Below are positions 8,448-13,281 of a stretch of DNA of 13,281 nucleotides, piece after piece. The notes beneath the pieces were generated by a model. It did not search any database. It saw nothing but the letters and a program-made list of their open reading frames with translations, and was not told the origin of the DNA. This DNA comes from a virus (taxonomy: Duplodnaviria; Heunggongvirae; Uroviricota; Caudoviricetes). The stretch spans positions 1-13,281 of the IMG/VR virus record IMGVR_UViG_2690316028_000002. One strand, 5' to 3'. Both the position numbers and the translations under genes were made by a program. Numbering within the stretch: the stretch's first letter is position 1; each line of letters starts with the position of its first letter.

Positions 8448-8650
8448 ACGTAAAACCCTGCTGGCCCCCGGCGTCGTGATGTGGTGCCAACCTGAGATTC
8501 AAGGTCAGCAATATATTTTTTGAGATCGCTGACTGAAGTGGCTGTAAATTCCACTCTTCGACCGTCTTTCTGTACCGTCGCCACGCGCTTTCCCATCATC
8601 AGGTCATGTAACGCAGCGCGCGCGGCATCCAGTTCAGTCTGTGTTGCCAT
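8444..8650 (-). CDS. W: Head-tail joining / head completion protein (lambda gpW-like)
   Basis: 68-aa ORF, the same length as lambda gpW; ...[41 protein letters not shown]...[10 protein letters not shown] matches. Start overlaps the A stop. Confidence 0.94.
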
Positions 8651-10572
8651 TATTCATCTCCAGATAATGCCCGCGCGTAATCCGCCAGGGTCTTGTTATT
8701 GTTACGGCTGCCTTCTTCCTCCAGCAGGCTGGCCAGAAGTGAATCAAGATTTAGCTGCCAGCGGGATATGCTTATACGCAGCGCCGCCAGTGCATAAACA
8801 AAGCAATCGAGCGCCTCATTTCGTCGTTTTTTGCTGTCCCAGACGATCTTTTTCTTTCCGTCTACCCATTTTTCCACCTGCTCTTCAGCTGTTAGTTGTT
8901 GGGCCTCTGTTAGATCGTAGATTTCTGGGTTATTCGGGAAATGAACCGCTCCCGCCAGCGGCTCGTCTCTTTGCGCCACCAGCGTGAAACGGTTATAAAT
9001 CTGCTCTTTTGCGGTGTCTGTTCCTACCTCTGTGAGGTAAACACCATTCTTGTTACGCTTGCGTGGCATGTTCGCCACTGGCTTTCCATAAACCGACGCC
9101 CCCTTTATAGGGATCACACGAAACAGACCGTGTTTTTTTGAGCGGTTGTAGACGATGGTGGGATCAATGCCGCCAATATCCCAGCAAGTGCGGGATATAA
9201 CCATTTCGAGACCGTTCTGGCGCTTATACGTCCTGTTGATCGCTTCATCAACTCGAGCGAGAGTCGACTCATCATCATGACGACCCATAATGATAATTTT
9301 GTCGATAAGCCAGCTTTCCTCTCCCGGCCCCCATCCCCAAACACGCATTTCGTAACGGTCAAGCTGGGAGTCAATACCCGCTGTCAGATATGCCACTCGC
9401 TCCGGCACAGACGCTTCAAAGTGCTCTTTTCGTTCCGCTAAAACTTCAGCATCGGGTCGTTCACCTATTTTCGGTTCCCACGTTTCGCCCAGGGTCGTGT
9501 TAACGAAAGTTTTTCGCTTACCCGTATCACCTTTTGTTTTTATCCAGTCCTTGACGATCTGCACCCAGGTTGTGAACGGGCTATATGCGGTCCAGATGTG
9601 GAATGTAACGCTGTCAGGAGGTTCAATTTCGGTACCGGATGAAGAAAACCAGTTAAGGCCGTCTCGTGTCCAGATACCTGTTTCATCACAAATATACCTG
9701 GCCTCCAGAAATTCCAGCTCCTGTTGTTTAATCACACAGGCATTGTGTTCACAGAGGTAGTAAACGCTGGCAGGTTCTCCCGGAGACCATTTGAAGCCAA
9801 ATGGTGTCTCTTTATCACCGAATTTCAGATACTGCTCTTCCCCACAGTGTGGGCATGGAACATGGAACCGAAGAAAATGTTCAGACTCCTTAGCAGCTCT
9901 TTCTATCTGGCACGTACCTTTGACTTTCGGTGTAGATCCGCGAATGGATTTCGGCCATACAGAACCCTCAATACGCTTATCACCCAGAAAGGTGGGAGAA
10001 CCTTCTTTCTCGATGTCATCATCGAAAGCGGCGAGCTCGTCGTAGCCAGCCACATCAACTGATTTTTCACGGTAGTTTTTTGCAGCCTTACCGCCCAGGC
10101 ACCAGAAACCACGACCATTCGAGAAACGCTTCATGCTCAGCGTATTGTCCCGGTGTTTTTTACCGTACCAGGGAGCAAGCGCCAGCAACGTCGGAATATC
10201 ACGAATGGTCGGTTCTACATGAGACTTCATGAAGTTTTCAGCATCACCGTCGGTTGGTAACCATATTAGGGAGTTACGCTGTTTATGTTGGATGAAATAT
10301 GCGTAAACGCCGAGCAACATTTTTGAGTAGCCGACACGAGCCGATTTAACGACATTCACCTCGCGAATATAGTCATTACCCATCGCATTCATAATTGCAC
10401 GCTGAAATGGCAGTGTTTCCCAGCGCCCTTCCTGGTAGGCAGACTCTTTCGGGAGATAATAATTCTCATCTGCCCATTCAACTGCTGTTTGCGGTTGCGG
10501 CCGGTACAGCGAACGTAACCCCGCCCGCGCAGAGTGCTGCAGCCCCTTAACCTGACTGTTCGATATATTCAC
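8650..10572 (-). CDS. A: Terminase large subunit (lambda gpA-like; ATPase/translocase plus cos endonuclease)
   Basis: 640-aa ORF starting MNISNSQV... with high similarity to lambda gpA throughout. The start codon is GTG at 10572..10570, immediately after an in-frame TGA, so no ATG is available. 26-nt overlap with the Nu1 3' end. Confidence 0.97.
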
Positions 10573-11092
10573 TCAGCAACCCCGGTATCATTTCATCCAG
10601 CGCAGCTGCCTTGTTCATGGCCTTAATGATGTCCTTCTTGAGGAAATCAATATGTCGGTTCTCCAGCTCCGGGAAGCGCCGCTGAACCGACAGAGGTATT
10701 CCATCGAGAATGCTGGCGATTTCTCCGGCTACCCGCGACAGCACGAACGTGCAGAATGCGGTCTCCACCACTTCAGCGGACTCTTTTGCATTTTTTAATT
10801 CCTGAGCGTCAGCCTGAGCTCGCGTAAGTCGGTGTCGCTCATATTCAATCGTGCCAGGTTGAAGATCGGACTCAGAAGCGATACGGAGATCTTCAACTTC
10901 CTTCCGCAACTTTTCATTTTCTATAGCTGCATCGCGCGCACTGTACCATTCGATTGCAGCAGCAGATTCAAAGAGAACCTCATTACCTTTGCCACCACCG
11001 CGGACAACCGGCATACCTTGCTCCTGCCAGTTCTGAATCGTTCGGACGCTTACCCCGAAAATTTCGGATAAGCGTTTTTTGTTAACCTCCAT
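10547..11092 (-). CDS. Nu1: Terminase small subunit (lambda gpNu1-like; cosB-binding winged-helix N-terminus)
   Basis: 181-aa ORF, the same length as lambda Nu1; MEVNKK...IRTIQNWQEQGMPV.RGGGKGNEV... matches closely. ATG at 11092..11090 is preceded by AGGAG. Confidence 0.96.
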   Translation of the reverse strand: MEVNKKRLSEIFGVSVRTIQNWQEQGMPVVRGGGKGNEVLFESAAAIEWYSARDAAIENEKLRKEVEDLRIASESDLQPGTIEYERHRLTRAQADAQELKNAKESAEVVETAFCTFVLSRVAGEIASILDGIPLSVQRRFPELENRHIDFLKKDIIKAMNKAAALDEMIPGLLSEYIEQSG

Positions 11093-11099
11093 GGCTTAC

Positions 11100-11260
11100 T
11101 CCTGGCAAAAAACAGAGAAAGGAAACAATCAACGGTAAACTTCCGTTTTCCTTGCTCAGCATTTCCTTTCTGGAGAGAGGACGTTTTTAACAAAAACAAT
11201 GAGTAAACAAGAAGAAGAACGGAAATGGCATAAACCAGAAAATTTTCATAAATAGCGAGA
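11100..11260 (-). promoter_or_regulatory. cosB-like terminase-binding region with R-element-like motifs
   Basis: GGAAAC/GTTTCC-type motifs lie at about 11110..11127, 11153..11169 and 11211..11228, separated by an AT-rich segment. The layout parallels lambda R1, R2, (IHF site), R3 as recalled. Boundaries are approximate. Confidence 0.6.
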
Positions 11261-11261
11261 A

Positions 11262-11285
11262 TCTGCGCGGACGCCGCCCCGTAAC
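11262..11285 (-). other. cosN-like nicking site; predicted 12-nt cohesive end 5'-GGGCGGCGTCCG-3' at 11279..11268
   Basis: The minus strand reads TTACG-GGGCGGCGTCCG-CGCAGA; the lambda junction as I recall it is TTACG-GGGCGGCGACCT-CGCGGG. Nick positions are assigned only by analogy. Confidence 0.6.
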
Positions 11286-11302
11286 AAGGCGGATCGCCGG
11301 AA

Positions 11303-11309
11303 AGGACCC
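11303..11309 (-). promoter_or_regulatory. cosQ-like element (minus-strand GGGTCCT)
   Basis: The heptamer sits inside a stretch (CCGGAAAGGACCCG) that matches the lambda right end as recalled, at similar spacing from cosN. Confidence 0.55.
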
Positions 11310-11337
11310 GCAAACGATAATAATTATCAATTGCATA

Positions 11338-12066
11338 CTATCGACGGCACTGCTGCCAGATAACACCACCGGGGAAACATTCCATCATGATGGCCGTGCG
11401 GACATAGGAAGCCAGTTCATCCATCGCTTTCTTGTCTGCTGCCATTTGCTTTGTGACATCCAGCGCCGCACATTCAGCAGCGTTTTTCAGCGCGTTTTCG
11501 ATCAACGTTTCAATGTTGGTATCAACACCAGGTTTAACTTTGAACTTATCGGCACTGACGGTTACCTTGTTCTGCGCTGGCTCATCACGCTGGATACCAA
11601 GGCTGATGTTGTAGATATTGGTCACCGGCTGAGGTGTTTCGATTGCCGCTGCGTGGATAGCACCATTTGCGATAGCGGCGTCCTTGATGAATGACACTCC
11701 ATTGCGAATAAGTTCGAAGGAGACGGTGTCACGAATGCGCTGGTCCAGCTCGTCGATTGCCTTTTGTGCAGCAGAGGTATCAATCTCAACGCCAAGCGTC
11801 ATCGAAGCGCAATATTGCTGCTCACCAAAACGCGTATTGACCAGGTGTTCAACGGCAAATTTCTGCCCTTCTGATGTCAGAAAGGTAAAGTGATTTTCTT
11901 TCTGGTATTCAGTTGCTGTGTGTCTGGTTTCAGCAAAACCAAGCTCGCGCAATTCGGCTGTGCCAGATTTGGCTGGCAGATCACCAGACAGCAACGCGCC
12001 ACGGAAAAACAGCGCATACAGAACATCCGTCGCCGCGCCGGACAACGTGATAATTTTATGACCCAT
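11338..12066 (-). CDS. Hypothetical protein, 242 aa, function unknown; cargo gene in late-operon orientation abutting cosQ
   Basis: ATG at 12066..12064 is preceded by AAGGAAA about 8 nt upstream. TAG stop at 11338..11340 lies 29 bp from cosQ. No motif I can recognise (no Walker A, no obvious catalytic signature). Similarity to the lambda right end stops at this gene. Confidence 0.75.
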   Translation of the reverse strand: MGHKIITLSGAATDVLYALFFRGALLSGDLPAKSGTAELRELGFAETRHTATEYQKENHFTFLTSEGQKFAVEHLVNTRFGEQQYCASMTLGVEIDTSAAQKAIDELDQRIRDTVSFELIRNGVSFIKDAAIANGAIHAAAIETPQPVTNIYNISLGIQRDEPAQNKVTVSADKFKVKPGVDTNIETLIENALKNAAECAALDVTKQMAADKKAMDELASYVRTAIMMECFPGGVIWQQCRR

Positions 12067-12139: not shown

Positions 12140-12438
12140 AACTGAAAGACTTTCTACGGTGTGCGCGTGCGATGCGCGTAGAAGACTGATTTATCAACCT
12201 GTCTTTATATCAGGATTCATTACCTGACTATTTGTGGGTAAAGTTCGTAGTGCGCTGATCGTGCAAAATGATTTTAGTTGGGAACAGTTCGCAACTCTGT
12301 CCCATAAAAATCAGCATATTCCCATCTATCCCATATCCAGCGCATTGACCATCGGGATACTGAAGGGAGATTCCATCATCTCTTAGAAAGATCACCATCT
12401 CTTTTGTTTCAATTTGCATATAGCTACCTGGAGGATTT

Positions 12439-13053
12439 ATGAATACAAGGATTTTCATGGACTATTACCATGAGATTGATTTTCCATCTTTATTCGCGAG
12501 AGCAGTGGAAAGCGATGACGATGTGGGTACTACATTGCGCATTCACCTACTTTGTGAGCGCATGGTCGAAGCATGGATATGCGCATGCTGTGACTGCCAA
12601 GATCTCTTTGGAAGAGATAAAAACAAACTTTTAATCGAATGTAATACTAAAATATCCATGGCGGGAAACCTGGGAATCCCCACGGAACTTATGAAATCAC
12701 TTAAAACCATCAACTCAATGCGTAATGACCTTGCACACAATCCATCAATACAAAGCATTGCTGATTCAAGGATCCAGAGCCTGACGGATACTCTGACTGA
12801 ATACTTTAAACAGCATCCAACGGAACCCAGCATGGAAGAATCAAAACTGGGTATTTTTAACGCCGAGAATCAATTAACCGAAGAAGTTTCCTTAGATAGT
12901 GACAGTTCAAAAAACAGACTTAAGTTAATCTTGCTGTTCAGCAAGTTAATGCAGGCGTTAATGCAATTAGTTGCAGCTAATCATAATGGGCGCTGGGATA
13001 ACCAATTTAGCCAATTCGTTTACCATGTGACCATGAACGCAACAAAGAGATAA
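12439..13053 (+). CDS. Putative HEPN-domain protein (R-x4-H motif), 204 aa; AT-rich moron, candidate abortive-infection or exclusion RNase
   Basis: ATG at 12439 with GGAGG 4 nt upstream; TAA stop followed 5 nt later by a perfect hairpin. Orientation is opposite to the late operon and the gene is visibly AT-rich compared with the structural genes. The protein has ...SMRNDLAHN... (R95-x4-H100) and a Cys cluster (C48, C50, C51, C53). HEPN assignment rests on the motif only. Confidence 0.8.
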   Translation: MNTRIFMDYYHEIDFPSLFARAVESDDDVGTTLRIHLLCERMVEAWICACCDCQDLFGRDKNKLLIECNTKISMAGNLGIPTELMKSLKTINSMRNDLAHNPSIQSIADSRIQSLTDTLTEYFKQHPTEPSMEESKLGIFNAENQLTEEVSLDSDSSKNRLKLILLFSKLMQALMQLVAANHNGRWDNQFSQFVYHVTMNATKR

Positions 13054-13058
13054 ATCTA

Positions 13059-13077
13059 AGCCCGTTTTGTACGGGCT
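13059..13077. terminator. Hairpin between convergent genes (agcccgt-tttgt-acgggct), putative bidirectional terminator
   Basis: Perfect 7-bp stem with a 5-nt loop, 5 nt after the stop of the 204-aa gene and about 10 nt after the stop of the small minus-strand ORF. Flanks are moderately T-rich, more so on the minus strand. Confidence 0.5.
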
Positions 13078-13086
13078 GTTGCATTA

Positions 13087-13218
13087 TCACAGGCACTCAG
13101 TGAATGCCTGCTGTAATGCCGCGATCAGCCAATCAACAATTCTGGCTGCGTCACCTGGCGGAATGGTGAATGCCGGAAGTCTGTGCCATTTGGCTTTTGC
13201 CATCTGTTGCTCCGTCAT
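13087..13218 (-). CDS. Small hypothetical ORF (43 aa, or 38 aa from the second ATG), speculative
   Basis: Hand-translated: MTEQQMAKAKWHRLPAFTIPPGDAARIVDWLIAALQQAFTECL. Bounded upstream by an in-frame stop at 13234..13236. Weak Shine-Dalgarno. Convergent with the 204-aa gene and ends at the shared hairpin. Too short for the ORF track. Confidence 0.25.
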   Translation of the reverse strand: MTEQQMAKAKWHRLPAFTIPPGDAARIVDWLIAALQQAFTECL

Positions 13219-13281
13219 TATCCGTTGCAGGGGTTATTTTTGATTTATCCGCTCAGGGGGATATCCATTATCAAGCCCACC

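Follow-up and report, generated by a model that had tools for sequence, protein, structure and literature searches.

A lambda-type cos site with the N15 form of cosN, predicted in a phi80/mEp237/HK225-like lambdoid (pro)phage of Escherichia coli

The stretch of DNA analysed here (the window, 13,281 nucleotides in its full length) carries a run of terminase and head genes on its minus strand, and all features of the cos site are read on that same gene strand. Positions within the site are counted from window 11279, the first G of the putative overhang, taken as bp 1. From 11309 to 11262 the minus strand reads GGGTCCTTTCCGGCGATCCGCCTTGTTACG, then GGGCGGCGTCCG, then CGCAGA. The segment opens with GGGTCCT (11309..11303, minus strand, bp -30 to -24), recognized from its sequence and by comparison with lambda and phi80 as cosQ, the 7-bp signal for termination of packaging. 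The cosQ site is highly conserved (PMC4669245), and alignment gives it the same sequence and the same distance to the overhang in lambda, phi80, and the window. The phi80 record has a cosQ region annotated at the equivalent place.

Sequence and homology put cosN, the 12-bp cohesive-end sequence together with the CG dinucleotides that flank each nick, at 11266..11281 (minus strand). The predicted 12-nt 5' cohesive end within it, GGGCGGCGTCCG (11279..11268, minus strand, bp 1-12), is identical to bases 1-12 of N15. By homology, the nicks would fall at 11280/11279 on the minus (gene) strand and at 11268/11267 on the plus strand; in lambda, the bottom-strand nick lies between bp 12 and 13 (PMC9026076). 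The overhang is preceded by TTACG and followed by CGCAG. The left half of the overhang (GGGCGG CG) is kept, bp 1-8 being those of lambda, and there is a CG on either side. The symmetry of lambda cosN is likewise retained, and the outer flanks add one more symmetric pair. Between cosN and cosB lies the I2 spacer (11231..11267, minus strand, bp 13-49). It has no indel relative to lambda, so the distance from cosN to R3, known to be critical (PMC4669245, PMC9026076), is preserved.

The core of the R elements, TTTCCKTTCT, has exactly three matches in the 13.3-kb window, all of them in cosB and in the order R3 (minus), R2 (plus), R1 (minus). Chance would provide 0.07 matches, and three were reached in none of 200 shuffles. 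The cores lie at bp 55-64, 109-118, and 155-164, as compared with 55-64, 109-118, and 156-165 in lambda. R3, the predicted binding site for TerS, occupies 11215..11230 (minus strand, bp 50-65), with its core, TTTCCGTTCT, at 11225..11216 (bp 55-64). With the extent of R3 and its critical bases taken from PMC9026076, bp 56, 58, and 59 are T, C, and C, just as in lambda. The R2 core, TTTCCTTTCT (11162..11171, plus strand, bp 109-118), is inverted with respect to R3 and R1; it was recognized by its motif, and an IR1 is annotated at 109-118 in phi80. The R1 core, again TTTCCTTTCT (11116..11125, minus strand, bp 155-164), was found by the same motif and corresponds to the phi80 IR1 at 156-165.

The interval between R3 and R2, the equivalent of I1, holds AAACAATGAGTAA (11194..11206, bp 74-86, on the plus strand and so opposite to the genes), a weak candidate with two mismatches to the IHF consensus, WATCAANNNNTTR. 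It lies where phi80 has a match with one mismatch, and about 0.27 matches as poor as this one are expected per 44 bp. A scan of the window for the IHF consensus with at most one mismatch returned none, whereas lambda and phi80 have one such match each, better than that of the window. The first-pass annotation of this DNA had described cosQ, cosN, and cosB in the order and spacing of lambda upstream of Nu1, and the motif positions match lambda as it said. It bounded the site at 11262-11309, an interval that takes in cosQ and cosN but leaves cosB, at about 11116-11230, outside.

The genes that follow are those to be expected of a phage with such a site. Nu1, the small subunit of terminase (TerS), is a protein of 181 aa encoded at 11092..10547 (minus strand) from an ATG at bp 188 (11092), and it is identified by Pfam PF07471 (1.6e-95) and by PHROG 57, terminase small subunit. 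The recognition helix of its winged helix-turn-helix, VRTIQNWQ, has Q20 and E24, as in lambda. A, the large subunit (TerL; 10572..8650, minus strand, 640 aa), has the ATPase and endonuclease domains (Pfam PF05876 and PF20454) and would be the enzyme that nicks cosN. Both Nu1 and gpA are intact and match their Pfam families over the full length. Downstream of A, still on the minus strand and in lambda order, come W, B, C, D, E, FI, FII, Z, U, V, and G. By global alignment, TerS as a whole is 93.9% identical to that of phi80, 86.7% to that of lambda, and 56.4% to that of N15; over residues 1-68, the DNA-binding domain, the values are 94.1%, 77.9%, and 27.9%. The corresponding identities of TerL, over the whole protein, are 93.9%, 88.0%, and 88.0%.

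Packaging specificity resides in TerS and cosB (PMC4669245, PMC9026076). The determinants that separate lambda from phage 21 are residues 20 and 24 of TerS and, in R3, bp 56 (T:A), 58 (C:G), and 59 (PMC4669245, PMC9026076). The window is lambda-type at both TerS residues and at all three R3 positions, and lambda packaging specificity is therefore predicted for it. The identity between lambda gpA and N15 gp2 came out at 87.1% in my own global alignment (DE3 record), as opposed to the 64.9% quoted in PMC4669245, a discrepancy that leaves the conclusion unaffected.

It is in the cohesive end and its surroundings that the window departs from lambda. The lambda cos annotated in the DE3 record is GGGCGGCGACCT, which is the sequence that the first-pass annotation had given, correctly, for lambda. 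The overhang of the window differs from it at two positions, bp 9 (A>T) and bp 12 (T>G), near its end as had been claimed. The flank to the right of cosN had also been said to differ, and it does, at bp 16, 18, and 21 (CGCAGATTC in the window, CGCGGGTTT in lambda). A further four substitutions relative to lambda lie in the interval between cosQ and cosN. Comparison with cos sequences from the databases, run for lambda and for phi80, confirmed the differences from lambda; the right flank of phi80 and N15 is the window's version, not that of lambda. Over the 48 bases, counted by me from the alignment, the window is identical to lambda at 40, to phi80 at 46, to N15 at 46, and to mEp237 and HK225 at all 48.

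The overhang, called divergent in the first-pass annotation, is nonetheless no novelty. Bases 1-12 of the N15 record (AF064539) are GGGCGGCGTCCG, annotated there as a sticky end, a single-stranded 5' extension unlike the one of lambda, and this is the overhang of the window, base for base. According to PMC4669245, which cites Murray, Murray & Bertani (1975) on the point, the cohesive end of phiD326 differs from that of lambda at positions 9 and 12, like N15. Lambda-like phages often differ within bp 7-12, but they conserve cosQ, the left half of cosN, and the CG flanks (PMC4669245). mEp213 and LLS provide a further natural variant of the right half (PMC12315714). Both changes in the window's overhang sit at positions that are already non-symmetric in lambda. 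Very probably they are a neutral natural allele, already catalogued, and not a change in the specificity of terminase. Earlier reports or deposited records already cover the cosN allele and its occurrence in nature, and even the exact combination cosN(N15)/cosB(lambda).

Comparison with individual phages shows where each part of the site has its counterpart. mEp237 (JQ182730) and HK225 (JQ086371) do not differ from the window anywhere between cosQ and R3, both elements and the overhang GGGCGGCGTCCG included, and from Nu1 to the tail genes their DNA is 97% and 94% identical to it, respectively. The identity of mEp237 extends through R2 and R1, and HK225 has scattered substitutions, located near R2 and ahead of the ATG. 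The two were deposited as complete phage genomes and were isolated as phages. In the stretches fetched from the two records, no cos feature overlapped the site. phi80 (JX871397) is like the window in cosQ, the spacer, the I2 flank, and the architecture and positions of R3, R2, and R1. It is unlike the window in having the lambda allele of cosN, GGGCGGCGACCT, and D24 in TerS, where the window and lambda have E24. Lambda shares with the window the architecture of cosQ, cosN, I2, R3, R2, R1, Nu1, and A (the window having a weak candidate in the place of I1), the distance from cosN to R3, the core and critical bases of R3, and Q20 and E24 of TerS; it differs at bp 9 and 12 of the overhang, at bp 16, 18, and 21 of I2, and at the four positions between cosQ and cosN. 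N15 has the same 12-nt end, GGGCGGCGTCCG, and the same I2 flank, CGCAGATTCTCGCTAT. It differs in its simple cosB (a single, unrelated R3, with rR2 inside gene 1), in the DNA-binding domain of its TerS, and in having a packaging specificity of its own. Finally, the same allele combination has been made by hand: phi1201, a lambda engineered to be cosQ(lambda) cosN(N15) cosB(lambda), gives a wild-type yield (Feiss et al. 2015; PMC4669245 Table 4). The difference is that phi1201 is a laboratory construct in a lambda background, and the window would be a natural, phi80-like version.

I propose with considerable confidence that we have here the working cohesive-end site of an E. coli lambdoid (pro)phage akin to phi80, mEp237, and HK225. 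The sequence itself shows the anatomy, the homology, and the exact match to the end of N15, and these mark a cos site that is real, of a known kind, and almost certainly functional. What would be joined in this one phage, very probably, is a complex cosB and Nu1 of the lambda type and the N15/phiD326 allele of cosN.

A functional cos site should mark the ends of the virion DNA, as the first-pass annotation had said of this one. A megablast of the whole window aligned position 1 of the N15 record and position 1 of the phi80 record to the same place, window 11279. Because these deposited left ends both align to 11279, it is very likely that the site marks the virion ends and that 11279 is the left one. 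There is also an unannotated contig, Escherichia phage Phi06_2987 S (KM389287), which over 11273..11050 matches the window with 100% identity and stops at 11273, inside cosN, at bp 7 of the overhang. This is suggestive: a contig end here fits linear virion DNA that ends at this place, and a chance end within a target of 12 bp is unlikely. Falling at bp 7 and not at bp 1, it supports the locus, not the exact position of the nick. A literature search on how the DNA of Phi06_2987 (KM389287) was prepared found no paper, and the contig end within cosN therefore remains suggestive only. If 11279 is the left end, then it is the natural point from which to number the genome of this phage, and equally those of mEp237 and HK225, both deposited as records that open at the ATG of Nu1. 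The predicted sticky ends would be compatible with those of N15 and imperfectly so (two mismatches) with those of lambda. The value of the site lies chiefly in the correct annotation of genome ends.

How such a site would work can be taken from the model for lambda (PMC4669245, PMC9026076). By homology with lambda, the winged helix-turn-helix domains of a dimer of Nu1 would dock on R3 and on the inverted R2, across the bend that intervenes, with R1 as an accessory. The docked Nu1 would then anchor gpA, which would make staggered nicks in cosN, 12 bp apart: on the gene strand 5' of 11279 (bp 1), and on the other strand between 11268 and 11267 (bp 12/13). The outcome would be virion DNA with ends of 5'-GGGCGGCGTCCG, and cosQ together with cosN would end packaging when the next cos of the concatemer is reached. 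I infer the nicking positions, any use of IHF, and the specificity from that model.

The same allele can be followed through other genomes. In complete E. coli genomes, the cos region is found at 99.7% identity in five and at 95-99% in 23 more. IMG/VR contains 48 contigs with an exact N15-type cosN and its flanks. About 37 of the 48 have it together with a lambda-type R3 and a Nu1 N-terminus of the form MEVNKK..RTIQNWQ(E/D)QGMP; the rest have a simple cos of the N15 type (8), a third type of cosB (3), or some other arrangement (1). The window is a mosaic, the N15 allele of cosN with all else phi80- or lambda-like, and a common mosaic at that. A scan of IMG/VR with bp 9 and 12 left degenerate found T9/G12 in about 4% of the matches listed, and among these it was always accompanied by the phi80/N15-type flank CGCAGATTCT. 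Single-change alleles were also present among the matches listed, T9/T12 at no fewer than three sites and A9/G12 at one or more. All four combinations at bp 9 and 12 (A/T, T/G, T/T, and A/G) are thus natural, as at the IMG/VR sites GGGCGGCGTCCT and GGGCGGCGACCG. Alleles with one change could be intermediates, or else products of the repair of mismatched cohesive ends.

Among genome contigs, a scan with a 21-mer that included the flanks gave no match. A relaxed scan with an 18-mer gave 100, of which only five were true cos sites, with a lambda-type R3 (Kluyvera, Buttiauxella, and one further locus). The other 95 were attributed to chance; most of them lay in G+C-rich genomes, for example those of Streptomyces and Microbacterium, and 94 had no cosQ or I2 context of any kind. 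The remaining one, a locus of Streptosporangium (L200), passed a loose filter but was likewise without cos context. The overhang sequence alone is not diagnostic of cos.

In three IMG/VR loci (L134, L143, and L156), the N15-type cosN is accompanied by an unchanged I2 flank, and next to these comes the third kind of cosB, in which CCTGAAACTGATGTCCGGTTC is followed about 55 bp downstream by an inverted AACCGGACATG. In the two longer contigs among them, a gpA-like ORF starts near bp 679. A scan from ATG codons found no Nu1 of the lambda type, and their TerS may be a different one. Another locus (L163) has an N15-type cosN, a variant of cosQ (GGGGCCT), and as its first gene a Cys-rich ORF of 122 aa that begins at bp 106, close to the start reported for rpp in PICIs (bp 102). 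It may be the cos of a satellite or of something like a PICI.

What, if anything, does the allele do? The first-pass annotation held that the divergent cosN would alter the specificity of cleavage at cos and the compatibility of this phage with packaging based on lambda. Differences from lambda do exist, two in the 12-base overhang and three in the right flank, and there is a single reported cost, a yield about fourfold lower when the two ends of a chromosome are mismatched, one from lambda and the other from N15 (PMC4669245). But published experiments contradict the claim: lambda carrying cosN(N15) and cosB(lambda) yielded a normal 132 pfu per cell, against 120 for the wild type (Feiss et al. 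2015, PMC4669245, Table 4). A hybrid with N15 specificity was equally indifferent to the allele of cosN (PMC4669245), and the authors of the study concluded that the terminases are not specific for cosN and that cleavage is not measurably affected by changes in bp 7-12 (PMC4669245). The site is functionally asymmetric, bp 7-12 being the half that adjoins cosB, where mutations have minimal effect (PMC4669245); they are tolerated because TerS bound at R3 anchors TerL (PMC4669245). Against an altered specificity there are, moreover, the critical bases of R3 and residues 20 and 24 of TerS, which are lambda-type in the window, and the fact that its right-flank differences are common to phi80, a phage with the cosN of lambda. 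The claim has already been largely refuted by published data, and it would be most surprising if it were true. The example provided by the window, a natural cosN(N15) with cosB(lambda), fits instead the conclusion of Feiss et al. that drift is free at bp 7-12 of cosN, in contrast to its left half, cosQ, and the spacing from cosN to R3, all of which are conserved. A more modest role, in which right-half alleles of cosN act as a weak compatibility marker among phages, perhaps also satellites, that share one packaging specificity, is doubtful. Were it real, T9/G12 in company with a cosB of lambda specificity could slightly penalize mixing with lambda-allele phages at the level of the concatemer, and alleles with one change would have arisen by heteroduplex repair.

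The alternatives that remain concern what kind of element the site belongs to. It might be an inert relic, the cos of a defective prophage that makes no virions, in which case no genome ends would ever be made here. Only 13 kb are in view, and partial remnants of lambdoid phages are frequent: 4375 of 5426 E. coli genomes match some part of the window, and only 33 cover 80% of it or more. It is nevertheless quite unlikely, given that all the packaging and head genes in the window are full-length ORFs, that mEp237 and HK225 have the very same sequence from cosQ to R3 inclusive, and that lysis genes lie upstream and a complete tail module downstream in the closest chromosomal relative. One might also take the cosN allele, which is that of N15, and structural genes that are about 90% identical to those of N15 in DNA as signs of an N15-type cos, with a simple cosB, N15 packaging specificity, and a prophage in the form of a linear plasmid. 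Yet N15 has its R3, GAGGTTGTTGTT, at bp 48-59, has no I1, R2, or R1, and begins gene 1, which encodes its TerS, at bp 89. The window has R3, R2, and R1 of the lambda type and a Nu1 that starts at bp 188 and is, over residues 1-68, only 27.9% identical to N15 gp1. On these grounds a simple cos of the N15 type was rejected, and it is scarcely credible. A PICI cos was rejected as well, since a full head module (Nu1, A, W, B, C, D, and E) follows the site. The functional cos of a phi80-like lambdoid phage is the reading I prefer.

The surroundings of the site offer a few further observations. Two minus-strand ORFs, 11050..11313 (87 aa, TTG start) and 11187..11369 (60 aa, GTG start), span cosQ, cosN, and cosB, and in the record of mEp237 a "hypothetical protein" (mEp237_063) is annotated at 44066-44281, overlapping the cos site. 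These are probably artefacts of annotation over a non-coding packaging site. The gene directly upstream of cos (11338-12066, minus strand) encodes a protein of 242 aa, homologous to N15 gp59 and to ORF x171.28 of phi80. RefSeq names it "Fur-regulated protein"; it belongs to PHROG 17079, of unknown function, and its only Pfam match, to Phage_Tail_Tip, is marginal. As the last gene before cos, it is conserved in N15, in phi80, and in this phage. A mosaic junction lies beyond it, at about 12183. Past the junction are an ORF of 76 aa (12228..12458, minus strand; PHROG 20632) and another of 204 aa (12439..13053, plus strand; PHROG 5483); neither has a Pfam match, and their PHROGs are without assigned function. 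In most of the phage records and close relatives from E. coli, the similarity to the window stops at about 12183; in two genomes, LT883142 and MS 115-1, it reaches further into the segment of about 12183-13281.
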